A stretch of DNA of 64,000 nucleotides from Alphaproteobacteria bacterium (GTDB lineage Bacteria; Pseudomonadota; Alphaproteobacteria; UBA6615): NCBI GenBank assembly GCA_028279245.1, contig JANQOE010000040.1:4121-68120 (forward strand). Direction: 5' to 3'. Positions 4,313 to 38,837 of this stretch are shown one piece after another; positions within the stretch are counted from its first letter, which is position 1; each line of letters begins with the position of its first letter. Both the position numbers and the translations under genes were made by a program. The notes beneath the pieces are model-generated. The model did not search any database. It saw only the letters and a program-made list of their open reading frames with translations, and had not been told where the DNA came from.

Positions 4313-4364
4313 GACTAGGTCGCAATCTCTCGCTTACATCCACCTCGATCTTCAGGAGCGCTAG

Positions 4365-5944: not shown

Positions 5945-5956
5945 AGCGGGGACAAC

Positions 5957-7030: not shown

Positions 7031-7033
7031 GCG

Positions 7034-9109: not shown

Positions 9110-9272
9110 ACGCGAAACTCCAACATCATCAACACGGAGGTAAGCATGCTGACTCTGCGCGGCCCCGTGACTTTTGTGAGTCGGTTCGGTCCACGGATAA
9201 GGCAATGAAGCGGCACGACGACACGGTCACACCGGGAAACCCGTGCGGGTAAGTCATGATTCCACGGCTTGG

Positions 9273-16417: not shown

Positions 16418-16648
16418 CTGGACTGCTTCCGAACATCTAACACCTAGACTTGGTCGCTGAACGCAGCACATGTCGCAGTTCTCTTGAAATGCCCTAAGAC
16501 CGAATTCACTGCTTTGACCCTATCGGCAAAACTCGACCGGAACCTTTGGGCCGTTGCGGTTACATCGTGTTTCTCCGATCCTTCGATACCATTCCAGCAC
16601 CATGTCGGAGGCCAACCGACACCCAGCGGAGGCAATCACCAAAACGCC

Positions 16649-24300: not shown

Positions 24301-25985
24301 GCGATGCAACTGCGGCACGACGGCTTGCGAACATCTACCGCAACGGACGCGGGGTGACCCGAAACTACGAACGCGCCGCAGAGCTATTCCTAACAGCGGC
24401 GGAAAACGGTCAGGCCAACGCACTGATAGAACTTGGGACCATGCATGAAGAGGGCGAAGGCTTCCCGAAGGACATCGGCCAGGCCGCCGAACTCTACTGG
24501 CGCGCGGCCGATGCCGGCGAACCAAAAGGGCTCAGGAAGTTGGCCGATCTGACGAAAGCAGGGCTTCTCGGCCCGGAAAATGATACCGGCGCCATAGAGC
24601 TATACAAGCAGGCTGCGGATACAGGAGACGCCCACGCGTTGACTCGGATTGCCAGCATGCATGAGGCGGGCGTCAACGGCGGCGACCCAGATTTTGAGAT
24701 GGCAGGCAACTACTATCGCCGCGCCATCGATGCTGGTGACAACTCGGCAAAACGTAAACTGGCAGCCATGTACGCGGACGGTCGCGGTGTTCCGCAAGAC
24801 TTGGCGCGCGCCGCCCGTATCTACGAAGACGCCGTCGAATCGGGCGACTACAAGGCGGCGCCTGCTTTGGCCCGCTTGTATCAGGAAGGGCAAGGCGTTG
24901 CGCAGAGTCCAGCCGACGCGTTTCAACTTTATCAGCTTGCCGTGGACAACGGCGACCAAGCTAGCCTGCGACCACTCGCCATAATGTACGAAGAGGGCCG
25001 CGGGACCACACAGGACTTCGTCCACGCCGCCGAACTCTACGAACGCGCCGCCGCGAACGGCGACGACAAGGCATTAGTCAGGCTCATTCTTTTGCAGGAG
25101 CGGGGAGCCGTCCCATCTACCGACAAAATGAAGCAAGCTCTCCTAGATCAACTGATCGACGCCGGTGAAGCTAAGCAACTCAACCGCCTAGCCGACACTT
25201 ATTTGGCAAGTCTCGATGTTGAGCGGATCGCCACAAGCGCCATCCCGCTCTATGAGCGTGCAGCAGACCTCGAGGACCCCCACGCCCATCTCCAACTGGC
25301 CAGGATCTTTGATGAGGGCTATGGCACATCACAAGACTATGAACGGGCAGCCGAACACTATACGGCGGCGATCGAACTCGGTAACGCGGGCGGACTACCT
25401 GGACTGGCGCGGCTCCACGAACTCGGCCTTGGCATGCCCCAGGACCCTCAACAAGCCGAGGCGCTACATGACAGAGCTCTCAAGGCGGGCACCCCAACCA
25501 TGCCAGAGAGCCTCGTGGAATCAGCACGACTACGGCGTGGAACGGAGTTGCTCCAGTCAGAAAACAGCCAAGATGCTCAAGTCGGAGTCCAACTCATTCA
25601 GGAGGCTGCAGACGGTGGCAGCATACGGGCAATGCGCCAGCTAGGGCAGTTGTACGAAAAGGGTGAGTTGGTGGCTGCCAGCCCAGAACTAGCGGCGGAG
25701 TGGTACGAACGAGGCGCGCGTGACAATGATCTTGCCGCTGTCCACCGGTTGGCCATGCTGTACCTAACCAACCCGACAGCAACCGACACGCAAAGGCAAG
25801 AAGGATTGGTCCTACTGGCCACTGCTGTCCAACAGGAGCATCCGCCAGCCATAGCTGAATTCCAGATGGCCCTGGACACCCTAGGCATTGACGAAGGGCA
25901 ATTCGAGGCGGCTCTCGAAAACGCCGGTACCAGACTTGCGTGTGGTGTGTACATCCTGGACGGTGCGAACTGTGCCACGCCTTGA
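21330..25985 (+). CDS. Giant Sel1-repeat (TPR-like) lipoprotein, AlgK-like scaffold expanded to about 35 repeats
   Basis: Lipoprotein signal and lipobox (LLTLAACGAANT). From about residue 60 on, the Sel1 unit (A…LA.LY..G.GV.QD…A..LY..AA.AGD..A) recurs at least 33 times by my count. 1551 aa. Overlaps the upstream gene by 8 bp. Confidence 0.8.
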   Translation: MTEYRRRTKSRKQEMKSYPSTFLIATLLTLAACGAANTSPTSDQGAELTQPRSEQSAADRAGSERARELLQLGERAELGIDRRQDYWKASWWYRRAAQQGSEEARARLGALYVNGRGVSKNVEEGLRLLQIAADRGHGPASARLGEIYEKGKHVERDLATAAHHYENAAQAGDPEAMVKLGELYEAGTGRTQNETEAAKYFQRAADAGDTTILRKLAGYYDKGIGVEQSYAVAADLYNRAVAAGDTRALRSLASYHENGLGVPQSFDQAAALYDAAAATGDAKALLGLASLYERGLGVPQDIERAIQLHEQAIAAGEKKALRQLADLYVSNPSILEGEATVAQAVTDQQQWAQAETPRRSSAFEQAAELYRRAAEAGDVTALRRLAELYETGRGVQRDPHQAADLYKQAADAGDVKSIKALAEMYVVGRGVEQDYRRVVELYEQAIRHGDTDAVMDLADIYKEGRGVPHDYDRALTLYEQAAATGDTKALRQLAEMHRVGLGVEIDHIRAAEFTKNAADAGDLRAMRDLASLYENGEGIEQDFSQAAELYQAVIDAGDAKGLRKLAALYEKGRGVTQDYDQAASLYEQALEAGDLQAIRNLAKMYEEGLGVDRDLVRAAELLERGVAAGQVKALRDLGALYETGQGVTQDFERAAELYGQAIEAGDNKAARQLAALYMDGRGVAQDIPRGIQLYEQAIEAGDQTALRTLGKMFADGDQVEQDIPRALELLKRAADAGDTRAMLDLAELYIEGHGVEPDADRAIEYYEKASDAGDLDALRSLAQRYAAGAGIQQDPDEAIRLLTRAGNAGSTQALVDLAALYIDGENIPKDPSKAAALYEQAATTGDVAAQRKLADLLLSGDGLAVDPVRAAGLYQQAANAGDASAADKLGRLYESGIGVRQDHTHAVQLYEQAIAAGAGAAAKRRLGKLLVDGQGIKHDPGRAAQLFQEAIDGGSHAAILNLAELLEDGLDDPPDDLAQAASLYETAASVGDATAARRLANIYRNGRGVTRNYERAAELFLTAAENGQANALIELGTMHEEGEGFPKDIGQAAELYWRAADAGEPKGLRKLADLTKAGLLGPENDTGAIELYKQAADTGDAHALTRIASMHEAGVNGGDPDFEMAGNYYRRAIDAGDNSAKRKLAAMYADGRGVPQDLARAARIYEDAVESGDYKAAPALARLYQEGQGVAQSPADAFQLYQLAVDNGDQASLRPLAIMYEEGRGTTQDFVHAAELYERAAANGDDKALVRLILLQERGAVPSTDKMKQALLDQLIDAGEAKQLNRLADTYLASLDVERIATSAIPLYERAADLEDPHAHLQLARIFDEGYGTSQDYERAAEHYTAAIELGNAGGLPGLARLHELGLGMPQDPQQAEALHDRALKAGTPTMPESLVESARLRRGTELLQSENSQDAQVGVQLIQEAADGGSIRAMRQLGQLYEKGELVAASPELAAEWYERGARDNDLAAVHRLAMLYLTNPTATDTQRQEGLVLLATAVQQEHPPAIAEFQMALDTLGIDEGQFEAALENAGTRLACGVYILDGANCATP

Positions 25986-26541
25986 TCCGCCGCCCGCTCG
26001 CATCTCCAAGCGGGGCACACACACCATCGTCAGATCCATAAGCAGCGCCATAGTATTTTTTGCCGCTGCGGTGGCCACGACGACGGCCGCGGCTGCGGAC
26101 ACTCCCGTCGTTGACCCCAAGCGTTTCGAGGCCGTGCAAGCGCTGAACCTTCAGCTAGAGGCTACGACCCTGGCGACCTCGGAACGCAGTCCAAATGATT
26201 CACAACGCGTCAACGGCAATCAAAGCCGCAAAACCTTGGCAGAAATACTTAACAGCGGCCCAGCCGAACGTTTCCAGCGAAAGATGGCCGCCAGCAACCA
26301 TCTTCATCAGCTAAGAAACGAACGGGTTGCACGCGAGCGCGCCGAGCAAGAGGAAGCCACCGGAGAAGATCGAGCCCGCATCGATCGCGCGACAAGTCGA
26401 CGCCGCGCGAGCGAAGTTATCGCCCGGCACATACCGAAAAGAGAGGTCGATGAACTCCAAGCCGCTCTCACCGAAGCGATGGACCTCGTTAACCTGCACC
26501 GCGAGGCGGAGAACCTGATCCAGCTCGAGTTCGACCGCTAA
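25888..26541 (+). CDS. Hypothetical secreted, highly charged/coiled-coil protein
   Basis: ORF opens at TTG 25888 inside the 3' end of the Sel1 gene. A GTG at 25972 would give a clean Sec signal (…RISKRGTHTIVRSISSAIVFFAAAVATTTAAAA/DTP) with only a 14-bp overlap. The rest is R/E-rich helical. Confidence 0.45.
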   Translation: MTKGNSRRLSKTPVPDLRVVCTSWTVRTVPRLDPPPARISKRGTHTIVRSISSAIVFFAAAVATTTAAAADTPVVDPKRFEAVQALNLQLEATTLATSERSPNDSQRVNGNQSRKTLAEILNSGPAERFQRKMAASNHLHQLRNERVARERAEQEEATGEDRARIDRATSRRRASEVIARHIPKREVDELQAALTEAMDLVNLHREAENLIQLEFDR

Positions 26542-27740
26542 ACCGTTTGCTGCCGCCTCAAATCATCAACAGCCACGGCCTCATTCTGCTGGTCCCGGCG
26601 AGAAGACAAGAGTTCCATAAGCCGAGCCGCCCCGACCGAGCCGCTCCGACCGACATTAAACACAAGCCGATCCCGTGCAGTTCGAATACGTGCAACCGCA
26701 ACCTCATTTGCATCCGTCGCTAGTCGTCGGATCACCGCTCCAATCTCGCCGAGCTGATCCGGTGACACCACGGCGCCAAGTTCCGCCCGAACGCTGACCT
26801 CCACTGGCTCCAGACCCAAGCGATGGTAATCCGGGTTACGTACCTTCCGCGGGACGTCCACAAACACCACCGGTCGCTCTTGGCTAAACGCAAAGTCCAG
26901 CGCCGCCCCAGACCAATCGCTCACCATGATATCCGCGCCAAGCAATGACTCGGCCGACGAGATGTTATCGTCGTAGACGAACCGTTCATGAGATCCGAAC
27001 CGGCTCCGTATCTCCTTTAGTGTGTTCGCGGACCGCCGCTTCGTCTCTGGATGGGGCCGAACCGTGACCGCCAACCCGGCATCGATCAACGCACCAACGA
27101 CTTCGTCCCCCAACGTTTCCAAAAGACCATCTGGCCCCCATGACGGGGCGACAAGAACCGATATCGGGTCATCAGGTCCTCTTGTCCGCTGGAGTCCTTG
27201 TGCTCGTCCAGCAATTATCCGATCAAGGCGACCATAACCATGTTCGAACAGCCGTTTTTCCGGCAACCCATGAAGTGCCTCCGCCGCACGTATCTCCTCA
27301 ACATGATGCGGTCCGGCACAGAATATCTCATCGAAATGGTCGAACGCTTCTTGTCGATAGACCATGTGCGAGCTGACGATCGAGTGATGGATATACACAT
27401 ATGAAACAGGGTAGACGGAGCGCTTTAGCTGGAGGGTCTGCAGATCGGGCGTGGTCATGACGAGAACCTCCGCCTGCAGGGTCCGGAAAAGCATGGTTCT
27501 GGTAACTTGGTCGCCAACAAAGAACCCGGAAACCCGACCATCGTCTAGCTTGAGGCCAGGGTCATTGCGGTCCGACGCCAAGTAGCAGATGGATTGGCCG
27601 TGATCCTTCAGAAGGCTCAAAATCACCGGCTCCAGATGCGGCCAGCTAAAGCTCCCCTCCGAATAGAAGACAATCCCACGCGCCTCGGCGGGCAGTGACT
27701 GAAAGCGGCGCGAACCACGCCAAGCATCCATCAAGCGCAT
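26538..27740 (-). CDS. CDP-alcohol (CDP-glycerol-type) phosphotransferase, TagB/TagF family
   Basis: C-terminal MVSDWSGAALDFAFSQERPVVF parallels the TagF active-site region (…TDYSS..FD……P…F). 400 aa, soluble. 4-bp overlap with the convergent upstream ORF end. Confidence 0.6.
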   Translation of the reverse strand: MRLMDAWRGSRRFQSLPAEARGIVFYSEGSFSWPHLEPVILSLLKDHGQSICYLASDRNDPGLKLDDGRVSGFFVGDQVTRTMLFRTLQAEVLVMTTPDLQTLQLKRSVYPVSYVYIHHSIVSSHMVYRQEAFDHFDEIFCAGPHHVEEIRAAEALHGLPEKRLFEHGYGRLDRIIAGRAQGLQRTRGPDDPISVLVAPSWGPDGLLETLGDEVVGALIDAGLAVTVRPHPETKRRSANTLKEIRSRFGSHERFVYDDNISSAESLLGADIMVSDWSGAALDFAFSQERPVVFVDVPRKVRNPDYHRLGLEPVEVSVRAELGAVVSPDQLGEIGAVIRRLATDANEVAVARIRTARDRLVFNVGRSGSVGAARLMELLSSRRDQQNEAVAVDDLRRQQTV

Positions 27741-28534
27741 AACAACTCGCCTGGCTCGGCCAACTGACAGAATCGGGCCAAGTCCCCCCTACTCTTCCTA
27801 TCTTCGATGAAGTTGACATCTGCAACCGAGTCCACCTCAAGCCAACCACCGCTAATACACGCCGCATGTACAGGCTCACCGCGATCAACCATGATCTGCA
27901 GGAAGTCTGTCATGTACAGGTCGCGTTTCTTCCGCCCTCGGATGCCAAAGTCGTTGTCCAGATTTCGGTAAAGATCTACCAGATGGCGGCCCGACCCAGC
28001 AGCTATTTTCAGTAATCCGACGTAACGAGCATCGATGTCGTCGGAGCTTGTTGGTACATCCCCGATCTCCGTAATAAGGTTTGACGGACCCATCTTAAGG
28101 GTTTCCGAGTCCTCTAGAAGATCGTTGTACCGAGCCCGCCAATAAGCCCGCCAGGACGTGTCCACCGTCACGGCAACGCTTCCGTCCTCCTGCAGCAGGC
28201 TTCTTAGTACCCGCGCCTCAAAAACGATATCGCCGTACGAAATGATGGCGTCTTCACCAGAACCAAGCACCTCCTCTGCACACATCAGCGACTCAACCAT
28301 GTTTGAGGTGGCGTAGGCTGGGTTACGAATTGTGCGGCAACCGGAAGGCCGAATCTGATCGCCTTCGAAGCCGGTCACGATGGTTATGTCGGTGATACCG
28401 CACTCACGGAGAACCGCCAGCTGACGGTGCAGAATGGGCACCTCACCGATCTCCACTAAGCACTTCGGTCGATTGGTCGTTAAGGGACGGAGTCGCGTCC
28501 CCTGGCCGGCCGCAAGAATGATCGCCTGAGTCAT
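27731..28534 (-). CDS. Sugar/alcohol-phosphate nucleotidyltransferase (LicC/NTP_transferase family; likely cytidylyltransferase)
   Basis: AIILAAGQGTRLRPLTTNRPKCLVEIG…ITDITIVTGFEGDQI aligns with LicC (AIILAAGLGTRLRPMTENTPKALV…INDIIIIVGY). 10-bp overlap with the downstream gene. Confidence 0.75.
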   Translation of the reverse strand: MTQAIILAAGQGTRLRPLTTNRPKCLVEIGEVPILHRQLAVLRECGITDITIVTGFEGDQIRPSGCRTIRNPAYATSNMVESLMCAEEVLGSGEDAIISYGDIVFEARVLRSLLQEDGSVAVTVDTSWRAYWRARYNDLLEDSETLKMGPSNLITEIGDVPTSSDDIDARYVGLLKIAAGSGRHLVDLYRNLDNDFGIRGRKKRDLYMTDFLQIMVDRGEPVHAACISGGWLEVDSVADVNFIEDRKSRGDLARFCQLAEPGELLCA

Positions 28535-29229
28535 TTCGTTCCTTCAAACAGCCGCTTTATCCGGCCAATGTCCGATTCTCGAGAAGGTCCCGGGCGCTCC
28601 GGGTGCCACATGAACCCCTCGCAACAACGCCATGTCTTGTGTCGAAAACCTTCGATCGACCCGTCGTCGGCGACTACAGTCGGGTCCAAGTTGTCGGCAA
28701 CGCCACTAGGCAACACGGCATAGTCATGAAAGCTGTTGACGCTGAATGAGCGCGATCCGTCTGTCGGGTCCAAAGCAAAGACCGTGTGCTCTGTTCCCGC
28801 GTGTCCCTCTATGTGATCGAGACTGCCGCCAAAGTGTACGTTGAGTACCTGCATGCCACGGCATATCCCCAGTATGGGAAGCGCGCGCGCGTGGCATTCA
28901 CGCACCAGCCGAAACTCGAACTCATCCCGTTCGGCGGCCGCCGTGCGCGCATCATCAAGATGCGCCAGGTCGTTCCCACCTGTGAGGATGACGCCACAAA
29001 GGTCTAACGCATCCAAGTAGGTCGAGGTCTCATCAGTTACCGAGTTGCTCAGCGGTATGGGCAGGAACCCAATCGTCCATAGGAGCCGGGCCCAAGCCTG
29101 ATCAAGACAGTCGCGCCGCTCTTGTCCCGAATAGAAGACCTCGACACGTTGGGTGAGCCCGATGCGTCTCACCGGACCGAAGTCACGTGCATGGCTGCCT
29201 CGGCTCGACGGTGTCACCAAACGTTCCAA
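28531..29229 (-). CDS. Class-I glutamine amidotransferase-like hydrolase (peptidase C26 / PuuD-like gamma-glutamyl hydrolase)
   Basis: ILGICRGMQ nucleophile-elbow Cys, downstream His/Glu (FMWHPERPG). The start is probably internal (GTG near VRRIGLTQRV), which would relieve the 47-bp overlap with the next gene. Confidence 0.7.
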   Translation of the reverse strand: MERLVTPSSRGSHARDFGPVRRIGLTQRVEVFYSGQERRDCLDQAWARLLWTIGFLPIPLSNSVTDETSTYLDALDLCGVILTGGNDLAHLDDARTAAAERDEFEFRLVRECHARALPILGICRGMQVLNVHFGGSLDHIEGHAGTEHTVFALDPTDGSRSFSVNSFHDYAVLPSGVADNLDPTVVADDGSIEGFRHKTWRCCEGFMWHPERPGPSRESDIGRIKRLFEGTK

Positions 29230-30994
29230 CCGAAACGCCGCCCGGATTGAACCGAACTACGTTGCCACAAATCCGACCCTGTGGCCCACGCTGCAGCTTC
29301 ACCGCACCAGCTTCATTGTCGACGAACTGGTTGCCGTAGATATCGTTGCCAACGCCGTCCGTCTCCTCGGCGCCGCCAACGCGTATCCCCGCACCTACGT
29401 TGCCCCAGACCGTATTGTACCGGAAGATGTTGCCACTGCCCCGTGAACCCAACCCGCCGGAATTGGGGTCTAACTGCCCTGTGCAGAAATTGTGCTCAAC
29501 GATGTTCCCAAAAGAGCCTTCTTTTACTTCGACGCACTCATTTCCTTGCGTGTCGAAAGTGTTGTGATGCACCCAATTGTTCTGGGATATATCGACGCCA
29601 TCCGTCGGGCTTTTCCCGTCACCATATTGTTTCGGTGACGTGCCGATGTAGACGCCCTCGCCACTCTTGCCGCCTTGGTCGAACTTGAAGTCCCTGACAC
29701 CACAGTTGCGGAAAGTCGAGTAGGCGATCTCATTGTCGCTCGCATAGTACCGGAGTCTAACGCAACGGCCGCGCGCGTTCTGAAACGCCACACTCAGAAT
29801 GCGCATCCCTTCAACACCATCGAACGGCTCAGTGCCTTGAGCCCAAAGCAGTGTCCCCCGATAGCTGTCAAGATCATCGTCTTCATCGAACTTGCCGTCG
29901 ATCTCTAGGTCAGAGATGGTAATGAAGTCATGGTTGATCTCGACAATCCGGTCATCCCCGCCACCTTTGATCACCGCGCCAGGCGTGCCGGTAATGAATA
30001 TCGGCTGTTCGGCTGTTCCATGCCGGACGGAGCGAACGTCCTGCATATAGACACCCGGGCCCAAGCGCACGACGTCGCCCGGCATCGCCCGCCTCAGCCC
30101 CTCTTGAATACTTTGCAGTGCCGCGGCCGCCGAACGCCCGTCCGCGTCGTCATCGCCATCGGGACTAACATGGTAGACTTGCCCTGCCCCAAACCCGCTT
30201 GAACCACTCCTGATCGGACGGTCAGTTGTAATAGGGTCCGGTATTGAACGGTCACGCGTCTCATTGGATTCCGAACCGCCGCGACTAACCGCAGCAACCT
30301 CAAGCGACTCCACAGATGACTCAACCGCCCCAGTGTCCGGCGCCGCGAACGTTATCTCAAGGCGAGGTCGATCCTTACGATCGTCATCGTCGCTTGAGCT
30401 AAACTTGAGTCCGTCGTCGGCTTCCGTATTGAGTATGACAAAGCCCCTATTCGGCTCACTACCGTTCACCCACGACTCAACAACCGCAAGTCCCGCATCG
30501 TTGAGCGTTGCACTACCGGCCCGGCTATCGACAACACCGAGAACTTCATCACCCCACCCTTTCCGGTAGGTTTCCCAGGTCGTTTCGCGGTCGTCCCAGT
30601 CGACGAGCGATTCATAGACTTGATACTGTTGCTCACTTTTCTGCGTAACGTTGATGGCGATACTCGCCCCAACGACCTTCGATCCCTCGGGTATTCTGGA
30701 GATGTCCCACGCCATCAAAGCAACATAGTCACGGCCTGAGCCATTCGGCCGGTCGCCGTCAACAACAAGCTCCTCGTCTCGGCCGAACTCTTCGTCCGGC
30801 TTAGACGCTGCCACATAAGTGTCCCGCGCACCGTCATAGTCACGACTCGGTGCGACGCCGCCCTGAAACGCCTCTGTGACCGTGCGCGCCTCGGCAGCAG
30901 CGGGATCGCCGCCAACCACGGCCCCCAACAGTGCCAACACAGCAATTCTGGAAACCGAGGACCGCCTCAGCGGGCCCCAACCGGCAACTACCAT
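29183..30994 (-). CDS. Secreted polysaccharide-active protein: N-terminal DNRLRE-like domain plus C-terminal right-handed beta-helix (lyase/epimerase-like)
   Basis: Signal peptide (AVLALLGAVVGGDPAAAEA). N-terminal half carries a …DDRKDRPRLEITF… motif resembling the DNRLRE domain. C-terminal PbH1 repeats (NNWVHHNTFDTQGNECVEV…NIVEHNFC…NIFRYNTVWGNVGAGIRV…NDIYGNQFVDNEAGAVKL). Confidence 0.55.
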   Translation of the reverse strand: MVVAGWGPLRRSSVSRIAVLALLGAVVGGDPAAAEARTVTEAFQGGVAPSRDYDGARDTYVAASKPDEEFGRDEELVVDGDRPNGSGRDYVALMAWDISRIPEGSKVVGASIAINVTQKSEQQYQVYESLVDWDDRETTWETYRKGWGDEVLGVVDSRAGSATLNDAGLAVVESWVNGSEPNRGFVILNTEADDGLKFSSSDDDDRKDRPRLEITFAAPDTGAVESSVESLEVAAVSRGGSESNETRDRSIPDPITTDRPIRSGSSGFGAGQVYHVSPDGDDDADGRSAAAALQSIQEGLRRAMPGDVVRLGPGVYMQDVRSVRHGTAEQPIFITGTPGAVIKGGGDDRIVEINHDFITISDLEIDGKFDEDDDLDSYRGTLLWAQGTEPFDGVEGMRILSVAFQNARGRCVRLRYYASDNEIAYSTFRNCGVRDFKFDQGGKSGEGVYIGTSPKQYGDGKSPTDGVDISQNNWVHHNTFDTQGNECVEVKEGSFGNIVEHNFCTGQLDPNSGGLGSRGSGNIFRYNTVWGNVGAGIRVGGAEETDGVGNDIYGNQFVDNEAGAVKLQRGPQGRICGNVVRFNPGGVSVGTFGDTVEPRQPCT

Positions 30995-32799
30995 TTGAAT
31001 GGGACGTCCTCGTGCACCGTCCAGTTATCATCCTTATCAACGGAATAGTGGTTGATATGCCCAGCCTTGAGGTCACGGCCAACAGCCAACTTGTCTCCGT
31101 TCTTATCAAGCTGGGTTGTTAAGCCATGGTAGATGTCCACACGATCCCGCTCCAGGATCGTTTCTACCGACTCACCAGCATGCTCATCTGACATACCGGT
31201 CAACGCGTACACGACCTTCGGAATGTCCAGTAACTGGACCAGCTTGTCAGAGACTTCGACCGGTTCGCTAGGAGCGAATGGCGGCTTGATCAGCAACAGC
31301 GCATTACTACGTGCGTCAATCCCAACACCGTTCTCTCGGCGGACATCCGCCTTCTCTATGGCATCCGCGTCCTCGTCCGAGATCGTTATGAAATCCAACT
31401 CCGGTCGCTCTTTCCGAGCCTTTCCACCTGCAAGCCAGCTCCCATGGTCCGACTGAAATATGATCAACGAGGATTCAAAGCGGCCGAGCTGCTTCAACTG
31501 ACGAACATATGCTGCCAGCAGGTCCGTCACGTGGTAGCTTTGCTCAAAGAAATCGGCATTGTCCGGATCAAACCGCCCATCGCGCATGACGTGGTATGGC
31601 CGATGCGGTGGATTCAAATGCGCGAATACATACTCGCCGGCATCACCCCGCCGGAACTCGTTGTCCATTATCTGCTGGAACTGATTCAGCGACGCTACGG
31701 TTCGCAGGTCCGACACCGCCCCAACGCCGTTTCCGGCCGCACGCGTTATCGGCCCCCTTCCATCATGAAACACCTCTTGCCGCAGGAACGTCGGTGCTAT
31801 CCGCATCAACCACAGGTCGGCCGCCAACTCCAACGACACCGGGTTCCCCACATATTGGCGATTGGCATACGGGTTGGCCGTCGAGTTCTTGAACGTATAG
31901 CCGGTCGTATTGAACCCCGCTGTCTTCAGTCTGAACAGCACCGACTCGTCGAAGGTTTCATCAAGCCAACGCTCAACACTCGTCTCTCCGGGATACACTT
32001 GCCCACTTATGAAAGACGGAACCGACGCTTTCGTGGCCATGTAGTTACTTCTCGCGCGCGGGAAGTGCTGGAAGCCATCGAAATCACTCTCGACTCCCAT
32101 CTCCGCCACAGCGTCCTGAAACCAAGGACCGTGATACCCGTCCACGACGATATGATAGACGTTGCCCGAGAAGGAGGCCGCACTCGGTGCATCCGCACGT
32201 GCTTCCGTTGTCACACCCCGACCACCCAGAAACCCGGTTCCTGCCACACCAAGCTCAACCACCACCAAAACGATCGCAATAGGCCAACCAAGCCGGTAAA
32301 CGACCGCCTTTGGCACAAACACAAAAGCAGCGGCTACCAACACGAACAGTCCCGCCTCCAAAAGAATCGACAGGAATGGTTCGTCGGGTGTTTCGGTACC
32401 TGACTCGAACTGGTCAATTGTCAGCGGCGCAACAACATCAGCCAGCAATACAAAAACACCCAGAAAGAACAACCCGCTGACAATCCAGCCCAGGGTCTTC
32501 TCTCCCGTGACTTTGGCCAGCACGAGAGCCAACAACAGATACCCGACAAGCGCCAGAACCGCATACAACGCAAGCACCTCGGGCTGACCCAGCTCCTCAA
32601 GGTTCGTTGATATGATCCGCATCGGAAAAGCGAATAACACCACAACCCCGAAAACGGCAGCAGCACCAATCGCCCGCATTCTCATTCCAGCGCTCATACT
32701 TCCAACATCCAATTGTTCGCTATATCGACGTCTAGTCTTCGCCTCGCGCAAACTACTACAGAGCCAAAACGGACGCAGGGTCCTTTGGGATCGTTGCAA
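30988..32799 (-). CDS. Membrane-anchored sulfatase/alkaline-phosphatase-superfamily transferase (LtaS/MdoB/EptA-like phospho-group transferase)
   Basis: About 5 N-terminal TM helices, then periplasmic sulfatase-fold domain with FQSDHGSWL and metal-ligand context (…AHLNPPHRPY…). Confidence 0.65.
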   Translation of the reverse strand: MQRSQRTLRPFWLCSSLREAKTRRRYSEQLDVGSMSAGMRMRAIGAAAVFGVVVLFAFPMRIISTNLEELGQPEVLALYAVLALVGYLLLALVLAKVTGEKTLGWIVSGLFFLGVFVLLADVVAPLTIDQFESGTETPDEPFLSILLEAGLFVLVAAAFVFVPKAVVYRLGWPIAIVLVVVELGVAGTGFLGGRGVTTEARADAPSAASFSGNVYHIVVDGYHGPWFQDAVAEMGVESDFDGFQHFPRARSNYMATKASVPSFISGQVYPGETSVERWLDETFDESVLFRLKTAGFNTTGYTFKNSTANPYANRQYVGNPVSLELAADLWLMRIAPTFLRQEVFHDGRGPITRAAGNGVGAVSDLRTVASLNQFQQIMDNEFRRGDAGEYVFAHLNPPHRPYHVMRDGRFDPDNADFFEQSYHVTDLLAAYVRQLKQLGRFESSLIIFQSDHGSWLAGGKARKERPELDFITISDEDADAIEKADVRRENGVGIDARSNALLLIKPPFAPSEPVEVSDKLVQLLDIPKVVYALTGMSDEHAGESVETILERDRVDIYHGLTTQLDKNGDKLAVGRDLKAGHINHYSVDKDDNWTVHEDVPFKW

Positions 32800-33053
32800 T
32801 CACTTTCTAAACGGGATTCTTCGGTACTTTCGCGCGCGCTAGTGAGTGCCCCAAACAGCCACGCGCTCCGAGTTTCAATCGAATTAAAACTTCGTAACAG
32901 AAATGTTACAACCAGAACTATCGGCCAGCACGCAACCGAACTTCTGCCAAGTTGCACGCCTTCTTCGCCTGATTAATCCTCGTCAACGATTCACAACCGC
33001 TCAATTTGATCCAGTGTCGTTGAGCACGGGGACGATCCGGCTTAGGGGGTTTA

Positions 33054-34364
33054 ATGAGGATCAGTGTGTTCGGTATCGGCTACGTCGGCTCTGTGTCCGC
33101 TGCTTGCAGCGCCCAACAGGGCCATTCCGTCGTCGCCGTCGACTCAGACGAAAGCAAGGTCACGGCCATCAACGCGGGCGTCGCACCGATTGTCGAGGCC
33201 GGTTTGTCAGCCTTGATCGCGGAGCAAGTCAGCGAAAATCGACTGACTGCAACCGTCAAGGCGAGAAACGCAATACTTGAAACGGACGTCAGCTACATAT
33301 GCGTCGGTACACCAAGTCTCGAGACCGACGACATCAGCCTCAAACAGATCACCCATGTCTGCACGGAAATCGGTGAGGCTCTGCGCAGCAAGAACGAGCA
33401 CCACACTATAATCACGCGAAGCACAATGCTGCCCGGCTCGATGGAAAATGTGGTCATCCGGCTAATTGAGAAACACTCCGGACTGACGGCGGGAACAGAC
33501 TTCGGGGTCGGGATTTATCCGGAATTCTTACGCGAAGGCCAGGCGATATTCGACTTTACGCACCCGTCCACGATTGTCGCTGGGTGTCTCGACGACCAGA
33601 CAAAGGAGATTCTCCGCTCTCTAACAAGCCAATATGATTGCGAGAAGCACTACATCGACATACGCACCGCCGAGATGGTGAAATACTGTGCCAATGCGTG
33701 GCATGCTTCAAAAATCAGCTTCGCCAATGAAATCGGCTGGCTCTGCAAGAAACTTGAAATAGACGGTCACAAAGTTTTGGACGTCATGTGCTCCGAAACG
33801 CGTCTAAACATGTCTCGACACTATATGCGCCCGGGCTTTGCGTTTGGCGGGTCATGTCTCCCGAAAGACCTCCGCGCTCTCCGCCACAAGGCCAGGCATC
33901 AGGACATTAGTACACCGGTCCTTGATGCGATCATGTTGGCAAATGAACGCCAGATTGATCGTGCAATAAAACTGATTACGGGTAGTGGCAATCGTCGTGT
34001 TGGCTTGCTCGGCCTAGCTTTCAAGGCCGGCACCGATGACTTGAGAGAGAGTCCGTTGGTCGCGCTGGCGGAGCGTCTGATCGGCAAGGGCTACGAGGTC
34101 ATCATATACGACCGCGCGGTATCCGCCTCACCGAGCAAAGGAAACAGCCGCGCGGTAGATCGGGTTCTGCCGCACCTTGCCTCGATCCTTGTCGATGAAC
34201 TGGACCACGTCATCGATTGTTCCGACACGCTTGTCGTCGGTACGGAGGATGAAGACTTCAAGAACCTGAACGGACAGATCCGCCCCGAGCATACGGTGGT
34301 GGATCTGGTACGAGCCGACCCCGGATTGAGCGAAAGGTGCAACTACCAGGGCATCTGCTGGTGA
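33054..34364 (+). CDS. algD: GDP-mannose 6-dehydrogenase
   Basis: MRISVFGIGYVGSV…PIVEAGLSALI…ICVGTPS…HHTIITRSTMLPGS, near-colinear with P. aeruginosa AlgD (MRISIFGLGYVGAV…PIVEPGLEALL…ICVGTPS…RHTVVVRSTVLPGT). 436 aa. Confidence 0.9.
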   Translation: MRISVFGIGYVGSVSAACSAQQGHSVVAVDSDESKVTAINAGVAPIVEAGLSALIAEQVSENRLTATVKARNAILETDVSYICVGTPSLETDDISLKQITHVCTEIGEALRSKNEHHTIITRSTMLPGSMENVVIRLIEKHSGLTAGTDFGVGIYPEFLREGQAIFDFTHPSTIVAGCLDDQTKEILRSLTSQYDCEKHYIDIRTAEMVKYCANAWHASKISFANEIGWLCKKLEIDGHKVLDVMCSETRLNMSRHYMRPGFAFGGSCLPKDLRALRHKARHQDISTPVLDAIMLANERQIDRAIKLITGSGNRRVGLLGLAFKAGTDDLRESPLVALAERLIGKGYEVIIYDRAVSASPSKGNSRAVDRVLPHLASILVDELDHVIDCSDTLVVGTEDEDFKNLNGQIRPEHTVVDLVRADPGLSERCNYQGICW

Positions 34365-34412
34365 GGCGCATCGAATAGACCAAATCTCTTGTGAAAGGAT
34401 GGATCGGACGAA

Positions 34413-34622
34413 ATGACTTTGCAAACGCGGATTAAGTTCGGAGCTAGCGTACTATTCGTCGCATTGACCGCAAGTGCACCAGCCTACGCGTACCTGGATC
34501 CCGGTACAGTCACCATGGCCTTCAGTGCTATCGCGGCTGGCCTTGCCGCCGGGCTCTTGTACCTCAGGGTTGGTTGGTCAAAAGCGGTCGGTTTCTTCAC
34601 AAAACGAAAGAAAGTGGACTAG
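34413..34622 (+). CDS. Hypothetical small exported/membrane protein
   Basis: 69 aa; signal-like N-terminus (ASVLFVALTASAPAYA) and a second hydrophobic segment. Ends one base before the large fusion gene. Confidence 0.3.
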   Translation: MTLQTRIKFGASVLFVALTASAPAYAYLDPGTVTMAFSAIAAGLAAGLLYLRVGWSKAVGFFTKRKKVD

Positions 34623-37600
34623 TTGCACATGGCGTCGGTCGCGGCGGGAACCTTCCTCGAAACGGATCAAACCATACCGCAGAGTGCCAAGTTCTGTTCC
34701 GATGGCGAGGTTGAAGAACCACTTGGCCTCCACGCCGCCAACTCCTACCTGGCGGTTATCCTTGGTGCGGGGCGGCCATTCCGTGGAATGGAGCCCTCCG
34801 CCCTGGCCAGTACGCCCGACCATCGGCGCGTACTGGATTGGTTGTTAGAGGCCTTCGCCACGGTCCCCGCTGATATCCACTATGTCGGCGGATATCAGCT
34901 TGAGGATGTTGCCCGCCATGTCTCGAACTTCACCTTCTCTGTAAATCCGGAATGGCAATCAACCGGGAGCGTCGGCACGCTATTCGTCGCACCCCTCAGT
35001 GCGCAGCAATCCTGCATCGCCTGCTATAGCGATGTTGTTTTTACGAAGATGGCAGTGGACGGCGTTTGCGAAGCCGCTGGCGATGTCGTCCTAGCGGTAG
35101 ATCGGACTTGGCGTCAGCGCTACTCAGGCCGTACGAGAGCCGACTTGGATGCCGCTGAAAAGGTGCGTCTGAACCGGGGTTCACTGGTGGCCATCGGGAC
35201 CGACATTTCCCCGGCTGACGCCGACGCCGAGTTCATTGGCCTCGCAAAGTTCTCACCGCAGGCCGTGAAAACCATACTCGCACTACGGGCCTCGGCCGGT
35301 GACGTGTTACGCAAAACCAACCTGCCCGTTCTCGTCGACCAGCTGTTGGCGAGCGGTCTGCGTTGTAACGTGGTGGATGTCGGTGGCAACTGGGCCGAGC
35401 TCAACGCGCCACAGGACCTGGCCCGGTTCGTGCTCGGAACAAAAGCTGAAACGCTGGACGCCCTTCGGCCGGTGGTTCGTGAGTGTGTGGTCTGTGACCA
35501 GGTTCGGTTTACAACGGGGGAATGGGCCAAAGATAGGGCCCGCTGCCTTGACAACGTGGTATCCGCGTTCGGCCCAATCCCGGTGGTGGTCCGGAGCAGC
35601 ACACTCACCGAGGACAGTTGGTTATCCACTTGTGCCGGCGCCTTTCTCAGCGTCCTCGATGTGCCCTGTGGCGATCGCGAACAACTGACGGACGCTATTG
35701 AGCGAGTCATTGCCTCCTATGGCGATGACAACGCCGACCATCAGGTGCTTGTCCAAGAGATGGTCGAAAACGTTCAGATGAGCGGCGTTGCGTTCACACG
35801 CTCACTGAACTTTGGTGCGCCCTACTATACCATCAACTACGACAACACGACCTCCAGTACCGAAACTGTGACCAGCGGCGTTGGCACGGACCTAAAGACT
35901 CTGGTACTGCACCGTTCGGTACAGGAGTTATCGCCCGACACACCACCAGCCCTGCGCGCGTTGTTGCCAGCGCTCCGCGAAGTCGAGTCACTGATTGGGC
36001 ACGATTCACTAGACATCGAGTTCGCCATCAACCGCGACGGCACTGTCTTCTTGCTACAGGTACGACCTATCGCCGTTGATCACAGTGCCTGGCGTGGCTC
36101 CGACGAAGCAGTCGAGTCCTCGCTCGAAGCCGCGGAGAAGGTCTATCGGCTGAAACAAACCCCGCCACCCTTCACCCACGGCGAACGGACAGTTTTCGGC
36201 GTAATGCCGGACTGGAACCCGGCTGAGATCATTGGCACCAGTCCGCGCAGGCTAGCCCTCAGCCTATACCGGTATCTCTTTACCGACGAGGTATGGGCGG
36301 CCCAGCGAGCCGCGTATGGCTATCGCGATGTCCGGCCCCAGCCACTAATGATAACTCTCGCCGGCCATCCCTATATTGATGTGCGGGCAAGTTTCAATTC
36401 GTTCATTCCGGCCGATTTACCCGATGAACTCGGTCTGCGGCTCGTCAACCACTATCTAGAGCACCTGAGGACCAAACCCGAGCTTCACGACAAGATCGAG
36501 TTCGATATCGCGTTCACTTGCCTGACCCTCGATTTCGATCAACAAGCAACGCGCCTTCATGACGCCGGCTTTAGCCCCGACGAGATTGACCAACTACGAC
36601 AATCGCTGCGCGGCGTCACCAAGTCTGGCTTGACACGTTCAGACGATGACATGCGTCAGATCGCAAAGCTCGAGACGCGGTTCGATCGCGTGATGCGATC
36701 GTCCCTGCCTCCGTTGGAACGGGCTTGCGTTCTGCTGGAAGACTGCCGCCGATACGGCGCTCTCCCGTTCTCGCATCTGGCCAGAAGTGGGTTCGTCGCG
36801 GTCGCATTGCTACGTTCGGCCGTCGCGCGCGGAATCATGAGCTCCGACCAGGTGTCGGTCTTCCTGAACTCCCTGAACACTGTCGCCAAACAACTCACCC
36901 ATGATGCCAAGGCGGTCGTCGACGCCACGATGACCTCGGAGGCCTTTTGCGCTGCGTACGGACATCTTCGTCCCGGCACATACGACATTACGACGCCAAG
37001 CTATGCCGACGACGCCCAACGATACCTCCTGCCGATTATTGAGAAGACCCGAGAACATGGTCCGGAGACGACCGTCAAGTTTGAGTGGGATGAGCAGCTC
37101 CGGAGCGGCCTATCGACTGCCCTACGAGAAGCGGGTCTCCCCGAAGACATAGATCTGTTGGATCGCTTCTTTAGACAGGCAATCGAAGGCCGCGAGCGGG
37201 CGAAATTCGCCTTTACCCGAAACCTAAGCGCCGCCCTAGACTCGATTGCTGAGTTTGGAAATCAGCTCGGGATCTCAAGACACGAGTTGGCAAACATATC
37301 CTTGGAAGACTTCCAGACCGTCCGTAGCGGCAACGAACCGCCTGACCTACAGGCCTGGCTGCTTCAGCGCGCGGAGGAAGGTCAATCCTCGCACAACCTC
37401 TCAGAAGGGATCGAACTGCCTCCACTCATCACCGCTGAACAGCAGATACGGACCTTCCACTACTCCGACACCCAGCCAAACTTCATCACAAGTGGGAAAG
37501 TGGTGTCTGAAATCGTATCGGTCTCGGAAAGCTGTGCCGGAGATGAAATCGCCGGCAAGATCGTTGTAATTCCTCAGGCTGACCCCGGTTATGATTGGCT

Positions 37601-37787
37601 GTTCGGTTACGAAATCGCGGGGTTGATCACGACCTACGGCGGCGCCAACTCGCATATGGCAATTCGGGCCGCCGAGTTTCAGCTTCCGGCCGCAATCGGG
37701 GTCGGCGAAGTCCGATACGGCCAACTGACGCGCGGTACGCTCGTTTCCCTTGATTGCCAGAATCGACGCATCGACGTGATTCGATAG
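34623..37787 (+). CDS. Multidomain PEP-synthase/rifampin-phosphotransferase-like kinase: N-terminal nucleotidyltransferase-like domain + PPDK_N ATP-grasp + C-terminal PEP-utilizer phosphohistidine swivel domain
   Basis: N-terminus AVILGAGRPFRG… has NTP_transferase-like glycine-rich loop. Middle VVVRSSTLTEDSWLSTCAGAFLSVLDV equals the PPDK_N (pyruvate,phosphate dikinase N-terminal) signature. C-terminus GGANSHMAIRAAEFQLPAAIGVG equals the PEP-utilizers mobile-domain His motif. 1054 aa. Confidence 0.75.
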   Translation: MHMASVAAGTFLETDQTIPQSAKFCSDGEVEEPLGLHAANSYLAVILGAGRPFRGMEPSALASTPDHRRVLDWLLEAFATVPADIHYVGGYQLEDVARHVSNFTFSVNPEWQSTGSVGTLFVAPLSAQQSCIACYSDVVFTKMAVDGVCEAAGDVVLAVDRTWRQRYSGRTRADLDAAEKVRLNRGSLVAIGTDISPADADAEFIGLAKFSPQAVKTILALRASAGDVLRKTNLPVLVDQLLASGLRCNVVDVGGNWAELNAPQDLARFVLGTKAETLDALRPVVRECVVCDQVRFTTGEWAKDRARCLDNVVSAFGPIPVVVRSSTLTEDSWLSTCAGAFLSVLDVPCGDREQLTDAIERVIASYGDDNADHQVLVQEMVENVQMSGVAFTRSLNFGAPYYTINYDNTTSSTETVTSGVGTDLKTLVLHRSVQELSPDTPPALRALLPALREVESLIGHDSLDIEFAINRDGTVFLLQVRPIAVDHSAWRGSDEAVESSLEAAEKVYRLKQTPPPFTHGERTVFGVMPDWNPAEIIGTSPRRLALSLYRYLFTDEVWAAQRAAYGYRDVRPQPLMITLAGHPYIDVRASFNSFIPADLPDELGLRLVNHYLEHLRTKPELHDKIEFDIAFTCLTLDFDQQATRLHDAGFSPDEIDQLRQSLRGVTKSGLTRSDDDMRQIAKLETRFDRVMRSSLPPLERACVLLEDCRRYGALPFSHLARSGFVAVALLRSAVARGIMSSDQVSVFLNSLNTVAKQLTHDAKAVVDATMTSEAFCAAYGHLRPGTYDITTPSYADDAQRYLLPIIEKTREHGPETTVKFEWDEQLRSGLSTALREAGLPEDIDLLDRFFRQAIEGRERAKFAFTRNLSAALDSIAEFGNQLGISRHELANISLEDFQTVRSGNEPPDLQAWLLQRAEEGQSSHNLSEGIELPPLITAEQQIRTFHYSDTQPNFITSGKVVSEIVSVSESCAGDEIAGKIVVIPQADPGYDWLFGYEIAGLITTYGGANSHMAIRAAEFQLPAAIGVGEVRYGQLTRGTLVSLDCQNRRIDVIR

Positions 37788-38072: not shown

Positions 38073-38837
38073 GTGACTGGAGAGCCAGCTATGGGGGTGG
38101 CGAGCACTTCTCTCGTGGAGGCACGAACCGAATCATCCGATGATACACACTCCCATCGGATCGCAACGATCGTCATTGGCCGAGACCGTGTTCTTTGGGA
38201 AGGTCTACGCAGTCTCCTGCCGGCATCCGAATTTGACGTCATCTGCGCCGTGGAAGATGTAGCGCGATTCTCCACGACAAAAGTCACGACCGCCCCGGCT
38301 GACCTAATCCTACGAGACCTTTCCACGGGTGCGACAGATCTGAAATCAGAACTCCAACACCTGCGGTCGATCATGCCGGATGTGCATGTCGTCGCGATTA
38401 CTGAGCGGTTCGACCCAACACTTCTATCAGAGTGCGTTGCTGCAGGTGTTCAAGGCCTCCTAAAAAAAGACATCACAGCAGACGTACTTGCTCGTTCGCT
38501 ACGCATGGTAATGCTCGGCGAGAAGGTCTTTCCGACGCGTCTGACCGGACTGCTCGTCAGCGGAAAGGTCGAAGCACGGTCGCCGGTCAGCATGCCGGAC
38601 GCCAATCCTCGCAAGCTTTCGAAACGGGAAATGCAAATCGCCCACCTCGTAGCGCGCGGTGAATCGAACAAAATGATTGCGAGTCGGCTGGTTATCTCTG
38701 AATCCACGGTTAAGGGTCACATGAACAATCTACTGCGCAAGACCAACGCCTCAAATCGAACCCAAGCGGCCATTTGGGCGATCCGGGAGAGTGGCGTTGA
38801 ACCAACGCCTCAAATCCCGCATAGCCGGCGTCGATGA
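38073..38837 (+). CDS. LuxR/FixJ-type response regulator with atypical receiver domain
   Basis: C-terminal KLSKREMQIAHLVARGESNKMIASRLVISESTVKGHMNNLLRK is the GerE/LuxR HTH. Receiver keeps the phospho-Asp (LILRDLS), Thr and Lys, but the N-terminal acidic pair is RD (IGRDRV) rather than DD. Confidence 0.75.
   Translation: MTGEPAMGVASTSLVEARTESSDDTHSHRIATIVIGRDRVLWEGLRSLLPASEFDVICAVEDVARFSTTKVTTAPADLILRDLSTGATDLKSELQHLRSIMPDVHVVAITERFDPTLLSECVAAGVQGLLKKDITADVLARSLRMVMLGEKVFPTRLTGLLVSGKVEARSPVSMPDANPRKLSKREMQIAHLVARGESNKMIASRLVISESTVKGHMNNLLRKTNASNRTQAAIWAIRESGVEPTPQIPHSRRR

Follow-up and report, generated by a model that had tools for sequence, protein, structure and literature searches.

A candidate phosphoramidate-donor gene cassette interwoven with a synthase-dependent, alginate-like exopolysaccharide locus of an alphaproteobacterium

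Does a locus for an alginate-like exopolysaccharide (EPS) also encode the means of attaching an unusual phosphorus group to a surface glycan? The question is raised by a 64-kb stretch of contig JANQOE010000040.1 from an alphaproteobacterium of the UBA6615 lineage; this whole stretch is referred to here as the window, and all coordinates of its genes refer to it. In the region 26538-37787 the original prediction had noticed a kinase resembling phosphoenolpyruvate (PEP) synthase, a LicC-like nucleotidyltransferase (NTase) and a class-I glutamine amidotransferase (GATase), which together recall the O-methyl-phosphoramidate (MeOPN) pathway of the Campylobacter jejuni capsule. In that pathway Cj1418 is an L-glutamine kinase, Cj1416 a cytidine triphosphate (CTP):phosphoglutamine cytidylyltransferase, Cj1417 a gamma-glutamyl-CDP-amidate (CDP, cytidine diphosphate) hydrolase, Cj1415 a CDP-amidate 3'-kinase, and Cj1421 and Cj1422 are the transferases (PMC11800397, PMC3907429); the locus comprises Cj1415-Cj1418 plus methyltransferases (PMC11800397). 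We consider it slightly better than an even bet that the region holds a complete 'type B' phosphoramidate-donor cassette interwoven with a synthase-dependent, alginate-like EPS locus. By analogy with C. jejuni, the cassette probably makes cytidine diphosphoramidate. The enzyme families are assigned in the present analysis and the chemistry of the steps is taken over from the C. jejuni enzymes. All the open reading frames (ORFs) named in the prediction for this region have been confirmed in place.

The kinase forms the larger part of a 1054-residue fusion protein encoded at 34623-37787 on the plus strand. An N-terminal NTase-like domain covers approximately residues 42-272 (nucleotides 34746-35438) and the putative L-glutamine kinase approximately residues 273-1054 (nucleotides 35439-37787), with the ATP-grasp, central and phosphohistidine-swivel arrangement of the Cj1418 type. 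The NCBIfam model NF004508 (PRK05849) is matched with 920.7 bits (cutoff 501), the alignment spanning residues 265-1053 of the protein and positions 5-788 of the 789 in the model. The next NCBIfam families reach at most 53 bits and the PEP-synthase models at most 47 bits, and on these scores a genuine PEP synthase or pyruvate phosphate dikinase (PPDK) is rejected. The swivel histidine H1011 is invariant in the motif GGANSHMAIRAAE among the 22 sequences aligned. An AlphaFold2 (AF2) model of the protein has a predicted local distance difference test (pLDDT) value of 79, and the top Foldseek matches of its kinase part are rifampin phosphotransferase 5HV3 (E 2e-16) and 5FBS. An unfused kinase from a Campylobacter-type locus scores 931.8 bits on NF004508, equal to the window kinase. 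We take NF004508 to be the probable family model of Cj1418, whose length of about 779 residues is close to the model length of 789. Homologues 50% identical to the window kinase are named 'glutamine kinase' in the JGI annotation. Similarity was gauged through NCBIfam models, and the equation of NF004508 with Cj1418 draws on the JGI naming, the length and the gene content of the loci.

Relatives of this kinase have been identified in at least 577 species-representative genomes, by a scan of one genome per species with two family-specific motifs that gave at least 577 confirmed loci; an exhaustive HMMER search yields 1590 clusters at 50% identity (E<=1e-30). Homologues of about 50% identity and a length of about 1020 residues are frequent in Pseudomonas, Halomonas, Marinobacter, Natronospira, Nitrospinota and other groups. 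The synteny counts given below are those of the 80 best loci, which come from many bacterial phyla and one haloarchaeon; L-numbers label comparison loci. The GATase is encoded directly downstream of the kinase in 74 of the 80, and the NTase within 4 kb downstream in 72, with fused and unfused kinases alike. Since this order recurs in 72-74 of 80 loci of many phyla, the grouping of the genes is far beyond chance. The co-occurrence of the three enzymes is not peculiar to the window but belongs to a widespread cassette, present in at least 577 species. In the window the order GATase, NTase and TagF-like gene is that of the homologous loci and only the kinase gene has been relocated, to the opposite strand: the GATase gene overlaps the NTase gene, and the kinase gene lies 5.4 kb away.

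The N-terminal domain of the fusion gives no match on its own in single-sequence searches of Pfam and the PDB. Its nature was identified by BLASTP against cassette NTases, by hhalign and by a fold search. Compared with the stand-alone NTase by hhalign it is a full-length paralog (probability 99.9%, E 6e-37), and Foldseek places the first 270 residues or so nearest to CTP:inositol-1-phosphate cytidylyltransferase, PntC and LicC, with a target template modelling (TM) score of about 0.7. A five-residue deletion in the glycine-rich loop removes the arginine, the lysine is replaced by serine, threonine or alanine, and the second aspartate is mostly asparagine. The lost residues correspond to the catalytic R16 and K26 of the NTase family (PMC12275187). 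As the catalytic arginine and lysine are lost, the fused domain is better read as a module for ligand binding or docking than as a second transferase. It is also rejected as the equivalent of Cj1416, since it lacks these two residues and it is the stand-alone NTase that is shared with unfused loci.

The stand-alone NTase (27731-28534, minus strand) is of the COG1213/LicC type, with matches to PF12804 and PF00483, and its best solved relative is LicC, the CTP:phosphocholine cytidylyltransferase (1JYK, 60.7 bits). Residues G10, G12, R14, K24, D102, E233 and D235 are invariant in 68 cassette NTases; R14, K24 and D102 are equated with the catalytic R16, K26 and D112 of the family (PMC12275187) by motif position, not by alignment to IMPCT. 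The NTase of the unfused Campylobacter-type loci, the single one present there, is 33-40% identical to that of the window. By synteny the protein is the putative equivalent of Cj1416 and a putative CTP:phosphoglutamine cytidylyltransferase.

The GATase (28531-29229, minus strand), a class-I enzyme of the peptidase C26 family, matches PF07722 with 92.8 bits and also PF00117. Its best NCBIfam family is NF045546, the model of Cj1417, with 134.2 bits over model positions 3-183 of 198; the next family reaches 42 bits and PuuD 32 bits, and a PuuD-type peptidase is rejected on this ground. The non-Campylobacter cassette GATases tested, from both cassette types, score 107-122 bits on the same model. 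The triad C123/H209/E211 is invariant in 73 cassette GATases, as are R101, H143, H168 and R212, and the protein is a putative gamma-glutamyl-CDP-amidate hydrolase. The sharing of invariant catalytic and non-catalytic residues by the GATases and NTases of all loci argues for one conserved chemistry.

These observations support the proposal that kinase, NTase and GATase form a triad of the MeOPN type. None of the three outcomes that had been named as contrary to it occurred: the kinase is separated from PEP synthase and PPDK (920.7 against at most 47 bits), the GATase from PuuD (134 against 32 bits), and the NTase from sugar-1-phosphate NTases by its synteny and by LicC as best solved relative. 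The kinase had also been placed rightly as a protein with PPDK_N and phosphohistidine-swivel domains, encoded downstream of a plus-strand nucleoside diphosphate (NDP)-sugar dehydrogenase; its NTase-like N-terminal domain was absent from that description. As to the wider analogy with C. jejuni, the core triad stood, while the Cj1415-like 3'-kinase and the cassette methyltransferase have no counterpart in the window.

A further gene (26538-27740, minus strand) encodes a TagF-like CDP-donor phosphotransferase, a putative phosphoramidate transferase. Its assignment to the TagF family, already made in the original prediction, is borne out by PF04464 (31.5 bits, gathering score 22.1) and by an AF2 model (pLDDT 91.6) whose closest PDB fold in Foldseek is TagF with CDP-glycerol (3L7K, E 9e-11, query TM score 0.58). 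The profile also matches TarL (8VA1). TagF has H444 and H584 as its catalytic histidines; in the TagF-like protein H119, H125, H145, H146 and H230 are invariant among 22 homologues, and H230 aligns with an 'HP' motif of TarL in the profile match. Homologues of 40-50% identity are found directly after the NTase in 27 of the 80 loci, and also in L007, L089 and L091, and it recurs as the fourth gene of the cassette. With TagF and TarL of the wall teichoic acid system, in which TagD acts beside TagF, the protein has the GT-B fold and PF04464 in common. It differs from TagF in its length of 400 residues and is only about 14% identical to it in the structural alignment; it would more probably decorate its acceptor by single transfers than act as a polymerase. 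Unlike the teichoic acid system, the window has no TagD/TarD-type glycerol-3-phosphate cytidylyltransferase associated with the TagF-like gene, and no gene for CDP-glycerol or CDP-ribitol supply (TagD/TarD/TarI-J) was seen among the ORFs in a general scan, a dedicated search not having been made.

Two other systems pair a cytidylyltransferase with a phospho-group transfer of this kind. In the model proposed for the type A glycan of Clostridioides difficile flagellin (CD0241-CD0244), a COG1213-type NTase makes CDP-threonine, and the TagF-like CD0244 is proposed to move the phospho-group onto a sugar with release of cytidine monophosphate (CMP) (PMC10714395). The pair CD0242/CD0244 is thereby a proposed precedent for a COG1213 NTase that supplies a TagF-like phospho-group transferase (PMC10714395), although its donor carries phosphothreonine, its first enzyme is different, neither a glutamine-kinase-type protein nor a GATase hydrolase takes part, and its acceptor is a protein-linked N-acetylglucosamine. 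Phosphonate tailoring by PntC-type and PepM-NTase enzymes (6PD1) follows the same logic of cytidylyl activation and subsequent transfer; its donor is, however, a C-P and not an N-P compound, and no glutamine-kinase-type protein or GATase belongs to it. A TagF-like protein 50% identical to that of the window heads a phosphonate cluster in L008 (10001-17235 of that locus), and this PepM-NTase neighbourhood suggests that the TagF-like subfamily takes various cytidylyl-activated phosphorus donors. The cluster comprises a PepM-NTase fusion, a thiamine pyrophosphate-dependent decarboxylase (phosphonopyruvate decarboxylase), an NTase, a cupin and an iron-dependent alcohol dehydrogenase.

The cassettes fall into two types by their kinase, and their gene content differs accordingly. 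Where the kinase is fused (63 loci), a TagF-like gene is present in 37, a formyltransferase-like gene in 31, an adenosine phosphosulfate (APS)-kinase-like gene in 3 and a methyltransferase gene in none; where it is unfused (15 loci), the corresponding numbers are 1, 1, 13 and 10. In Fisher tests of fused against unfused loci, which ignore phylogeny, the difference has p=2e-10 in the case of the APS-kinase-like gene and p=3e-4 in that of the TagF-like gene. The window cassette, with a degenerate NTase paralog on the N-terminus of its kinase, is of the fused type, and the gene content of Campylobacter is reproduced in the unfused type only. No Cj1415-like enzyme of the APS-kinase family was found in the 64-kb window by tblastn with an APS_kinase domain query at E<=1e-6, a search in which 16 other loci were positive, and a homology search of the window revealed no homologue of the cassette methyltransferases. 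The sole methyltransferase gene seen in the window (5183-5944) belongs to another cluster, at a distance of about 20 kb.

Plasmid AZO_p6 of Azospirillum lipoferum 4B (L090, 5641-12803) carries a cassette of the Campylobacter type outside that genus. There the gene of an unfused kinase of 784 residues (NF004508, 932 bits) stands behind those of an APS_kinase-domain protein and an S-adenosylmethionine (SAM) methyltransferase and ahead of those of GATase and NTase. The APS_kinase domain lies at the C-terminus of an 846-residue protein whose N-terminal part of 650 residues is a possible transferase, and sulfotransferase genes are situated nearby. Haloferax elongans (L072), a haloarchaeon, and Candidatus Nomurabacteria (L075), of the candidate phyla radiation, also encode the kinase-GATase-NTase module together with an APS-kinase-like gene. 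In Vibrio alfacsensis a fused cassette with a TagF-like gene is borne on plasmid plas1 (L089, 6103-16385), adjoining cysD/cysN sulfate adenylyltransferase genes and a gene for a PEP-CTERM protein; the cassette can therefore be mobile.

The window also holds the accessory genes of the fused type. A formyltransferase-superfamily protein is encoded at 14036-14914 on the minus strand; its gene is separated from the TagF-like gene by 11.6 kb, with the synthase genes between the two, and stands at the opposite end of the EPS locus. It is 45% identical to the cassette gene product that elsewhere is usually encoded directly after the TagF-like gene, and its homologues occur in 33 other loci, mostly right behind that gene. 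Its profile matches the PseJ formyltransferase 6CI2 (E 5e-10) and sugar N-formyltransferases. The motif IHIHPG...GIDTG contains the invariant residues H166, H168 and D203; of the catalytic residues of formyltransferases, His and Asp are retained and a histidine substitutes for the asparagine. A 205-residue ORF overlaps the start of this gene (14911-15528, minus strand). It has no Pfam or NCBIfam match; a homologue stands behind the kinase in L092 (37% identity, E 9e-18) and another before the formyltransferase-like gene in L023, and the genes at 14036-15528 are thus cassette members by their synteny in other genomes. On the plus strand directly before the kinase gene, 34413-34622 encodes a small membrane protein of 69 residues with a signal peptide, the sequence AYLDPG (conserved as AY(L/I)DPGSGS), a transmembrane helix and a basic tail. 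Its homologues, 64% identical in L092, are encoded either immediately before the kinase or behind the TagF-like gene, and a strict motif scan detected them in 16 of 89 loci, while the reversed-sequence controls gave no match.

Five minus-strand genes form one operon whose first gene (30988-32799) encodes a membrane protein, followed by a secreted beta-helix protein (29183-30994), the GATase, the NTase and the TagF-like transferase. The membrane protein gene overlaps the beta-helix gene by 7 nt (30988-30994), the latter the GATase gene by 35-47 nt depending on the choice of the GATase start, the GATase gene the NTase gene by 4 nt (28531-28534), and the NTase gene the TagF-like gene by 10 nt (27731-27740). 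The overlapping start and stop codons first described for the last three genes are thus real, and the five genes seem to be coupled in translation. The dehydrogenase, small ORF and kinase genes form a plus-strand series that diverges from this operon at a distance of about 350 bp. The dehydrogenase (33054-34364) is an NDP-sugar 6-dehydrogenase of the AlgD/Ugd type (TIGR03026, 388.6 bits), with GDP-mannose and UDP-glucose as candidate substrates. The beta-helix protein combines a CBM96 (DNRLRE) domain with a right-handed beta-helix (PF24517, 42.6 bits; PF13229, 27.6 bits; NF033679, 81 bits) and is classed as a polysaccharide-active enzyme.

Of the two proteins at the head of the operon, the secreted beta-helix enzyme was described correctly, while the call of the membrane protein as a sulfatase-family, LtaS-like transferase proved weak: it scores 19.0 bits on PF00884, below the gathering score of 25, sulfatases among solved structures are matched only at E>=0.24, and a word-indexed protein search, which finds relatives sharing short exact words, returned two further homologues. 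What does fit is the architecture of five hydrophobic transmembrane-like windows in residues 37-194, followed by about 400 residues in which the motifs NPPH and SDHG align to sulfatases. LtaS, EptA, OpgB and BcsG are periplasmic phospho-group transferases of the alkaline-phosphatase superfamily, and BcsG is a precedent for the periplasmic phospho-decoration of a synthase-made polymer. The window protein resembles them in having about five N-terminal transmembrane helices and an extracytoplasmic alkaline-phosphatase-like domain; it differs from them in staying below the Pfam Sulfatase threshold and in having almost no detectable homologues. We know of no link between this superfamily and a CDP-derived donor. 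Distant homologues are encoded near the cassette in L043, L040, L006, L047, L057 and L021, and in L091, a 58%-identical relative, a PF00884 protein adjoins the TagF-like gene.

The cassette genes flank on both sides a set of synthase genes on the plus strand. A GT2 synthase of the Glyco_tranf_2_3 family (16484-18160, PF13641) is followed by a PilZ and HlyD protein of Alg44-like architecture (18157-19323, PF07238 and PF13437), so that the combination of GT2 synthase and PilZ-HlyD co-polymerase is present, although neither protein of the pair 16484-19323 matches an NCBIfam family. They are followed by an AlgG-like beta-helix protein (19715-21337), with 269.8 bits on the AlgG model NF038177 (cutoff 700), and an unusually large, AlgK-like protein of 1551 residues (21330-25985) with 21 Sel1-repeat stretches (PF08238). 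As the AlgG-model score of 270 bits is below the cutoff of 700, the term alginate-like is fair for the architecture and carries no claim of membership. The Sel1-repeat proteins at 21330-25985 and at 38791-40221, both on the plus strand, occupy the position of AlgK in the alginate locus; a Sel1 protein of 476 residues has 99 bits on the AlgK model (cutoff 700). A LuxR-type response regulator (38073-38837) is encoded between the kinase and the second Sel1 protein. The GATase, NTase and TagF-like genes are in turn coupled to those of the secreted beta-helix and membrane proteins. A second instance of the neighbourhood is L092, a contig with a kinase 65% identical, a dehydrogenase 65%, a small ORF 64% and a GT2 protein 46% identical to those of the window. 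The order dehydrogenase, small ORF, kinase is kept there; the GT2 gene and an Alg44-like fragment lie divergently beside them, in an arrangement that is changed with respect to the window.

If the C. jejuni chemistry applies, the kinase would use ATP to phosphorylate L-glutamine on its amide nitrogen, the stand-alone COG1213 NTase would convert phosphoglutamine and CTP to CDP-L-glutamine, and the Cys-His-Glu hydrolase of GATase fold would release glutamate and leave cytidine diphosphoramidate. The TagF-like GT-B enzyme would transfer the phosphoramidate from this CDP-amidate to a hydroxyl of a glycan or lipid-linked acceptor with release of CMP; as a Cj1415-type 3'-kinase is missing from the variant, CDP-amidate is proposed to be used directly. 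The formyltransferase-like protein may afterwards modify the transferred group or its acceptor. The final target would most likely be the polymer of the adjacent GT2/PilZ-HlyD synthase. As this polymer is exported during its synthesis, a membrane intermediate is conceivable, and, as the most tentative step, the co-operonic alkaline-phosphatase-family protein might pass it on. Of the CDP-activated donors that had been envisaged, a phosphoramidate-like one is favoured by these assignments. Phosphoglycerol and phosphocholine are disfavoured because the Cj1417-type hydrolase is strictly conserved, and with CDP-glycerol or CDP-choline as donor, a candidate that is rejected, this conservation would be left unexplained.

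Several points weigh against the pathway as just set out. Identity to Cj1416-Cj1418 was gauged only through NCBIfam models; the equation of NF004508 with Cj1418 is a probable one that draws on JGI names and matching length; and the GATase stays below the equivalog cutoff of NF045546 (134.2 against 250 bits). The substrate of the fused-type kinase could differ, and the Fisher contrasts between the two types do not allow for common descent. The part given to the membrane protein is a conjecture from its operon position and a few distant co-occurrences. In the 80 more distant loci no GT2/Alg44-like pair lies beside the cassette, which elsewhere is found in glycan loci of Wzy or ATP-binding cassette (ABC)-transporter type, and for this reason the acceptor may be another molecule than the alginate-like polymer. 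Enzymes of the TagF type work at the cytoplasmic face of the membrane, while synthase-dependent polymers are normally modified in the periplasm, and the window also holds an O-antigen-like cluster at 210-9205. That the alginate-like polymer accepts the P-N group is something that we only infer.

The alternative that survives best keeps the donor and changes the acceptor, which might be lipopolysaccharide (LPS) or O-antigen, a lipid-linked glycan, a glycolipid or a glycoprotein assembled in the cytoplasm, the adjacency of the synthase then reflecting a general surface gene island. We hold this to be unlikely but of real weight. The Wzy- and ABC-transporter-type settings elsewhere, the absence of a GT2/Alg44-like neighbour in all 80 loci, the cytoplasmic site of TagF-family enzymes and the O-antigen-like cluster in the window all speak for it. 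In addition, the known non-methylated phosphoramide groups are borne on the LPS cores of Xanthomonas and Shewanella (PMC3907429, PMC3210612). In the window, however, the cassette is interleaved with the synthase locus on both sides and co-operonic with a secreted and a membrane enzyme, dehydrogenase, small ORF and kinase genes stand in series, and the adjacency of synthase and cassette recurs in L092 with rearranged order.

A different CDP-donor is the next alternative and a rather improbable one. The kinase of the fused cassette might act on another amide, an amine or a hydroxyl, or the transferred group might be N-formylated, or might be phosphoglutamine or a different phospho-amino acid, in the manner of the CDP-threonine model of C. 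difficile. COG1213 NTases accept many phospho-substrates, and Cj1416 itself is cited as substrate-promiscuous in vitro (PMC12275187). The 50%-identical TagF-like protein beside the PepM phosphonate cluster of L008, which points to a flexible choice of donor, and the extra parts of the fused type (pseudo-NTase domain, formyltransferase-like protein and small peptide) are in keeping with this possibility. Against it, the Cj1417-type hydrolase, which strips glutamate from CDP-glutamine, is kept in 74 of 80 loci with its invariant triad and further invariant residues common to both types, the kinase domains of both types are equal on NF004508 (920.7 and 931.8 bits), and no alternative substrate-supplying genes are conserved in the cassette. 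That a sugar-1-phosphate NTase, a PuuD-type peptidase, a PEP synthase and a teichoic-acid-type polymerase are merely neighbours by chance with no common pathway, as the generic PGAP-style names of the plasmid homologues would allow, is hardly credible and is contradicted by the order-conserved co-occurrence in 72-74 of 80 loci of many phyla, by family scores that are far higher on the Cj1417 and NF004508 models than on those of PuuD and PEP synthase, and by the overlapping start and stop codons.

The phosphoramidate cassette of the window and the MeOPN system share the three core enzyme families with intact catalytic residues, a setting in a surface-polysaccharide locus and, in the loci homologous to the window, the order kinase, hydrolase, NTase. 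The window differs from C. jejuni in lacking a Cj1415-like enzyme and a cassette-associated SAM methyltransferase, in its TagF-like transferase, in the fusion of its kinase to a degenerate NTase paralog, in the addition of a formyltransferase-like protein and a small membrane peptide, and in a polymer system that is synthase-dependent, whereas that of C. jejuni is ABC-transporter-dependent.

In the literature the glutamine kinase has been called 'C. jejuni-specific' in a 2022 review (PMC9561416), MeOPN orthologues have been surveyed only within the genus Campylobacter (PMC3907429), and a preprint on Borgs has inferred an MeOPN-like cluster by structure (10.1101/2024.11.05.622173). We found no description of the fused variant with TagF-like and formyltransferase-like proteins, nor of a phosphoramidate-type pathway in an alginate-type locus, in a search that left much subscription literature outside. 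The fused-type cassette is apparently a widespread and undescribed variant of the Campylobacter capsule pathway. In PGAP/RefSeq its homologues bear the generic names 'PEP-utilizing enzyme', 'gamma-glutamyl-GABA hydrolase family', 'phosphocholine cytidylyltransferase family' and 'CDP-glycerol glycerophosphotransferase family'. P-N bonds are considered a biological rarity on glycans, and beyond Campylobacter phosphoramide groups are cited only for the LPS of Xanthomonas and Shewanella (PMC3907429, PMC3210612); the three-enzyme core is encoded in at least 577 species genomes, mostly with the fused architecture. In Campylobacter the phosphoramidate groups matter for phage receptors, serum resistance and immune recognition. 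If the chemistry holds, a large unannotated class of surface-glycan modifications would become predictable from sequence, and the question would arise how a cytoplasmic CDP-donor pathway could decorate an alginate-type polymer. Culturable carriers exist in Pseudomonas, Marinobacter and Halomonas, among them Pseudomonas wadenswilerensis, Marinobacter lacisalsi and Halomonas nitroreducens, and in Vibrio alfacsensis with its plasmid plas1.

A bolder and doubtful extension may also be put forward, in which the fused cassette would be a distinct, phylum-spanning system of six parts, namely the small membrane peptide, the fusion of pseudo-NTase and glutamine kinase, the hydrolase, the NTase, the TagF-like transferase and the formyltransferase-like enzyme. 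It would add a P-N group other than MeOPN, free or N-formylated, to surface glycans, and in the window pass it to the alginate-like polymer through a membrane-bound intermediate that the alkaline-phosphatase-family protein would handle. Among its carriers would be Pseudomonas, Marinobacter, Halomonas, SAR86, Pelagibacteraceae, Actinomycetota and Planctomycetota. Far from being a speciality of Campylobacter, phosphoramidate glycans would on this view be common in nature, and synthase-made alginate-like polymers would have a new route of decoration.

Three further features of the window have been noted around the locus. At its edge, 40515-42164 on the minus strand encodes a phospholipase-D/cardiolipin-synthase-like protein of 549 residues with two HKD motifs; it could make or remodel a phospholipid head group, and none was seen near the cassette elsewhere. 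Divergent from the GT2 synthase gene, 15728-16471 on the minus strand encodes a ParA/MinD-type ATPase with a weak BcsQ match, which may point to a polar or localised synthesis of the polymer as in cellulose systems. The separate O-antigen-like cluster at 210-9205 encodes Wzy_C, DUF5672, GT2 and GT4 proteins, a weak sulfotransferase-like match and a methyltransferase, together with a GDP-mannose 4,6-dehydratase and two epimerase/reductases. The cluster might provide another acceptor pathway or have been acquired horizontally as a block; the GC content over 1-6 kb is only 0.52-0.53, compared with about 0.6 elsewhere in the window.

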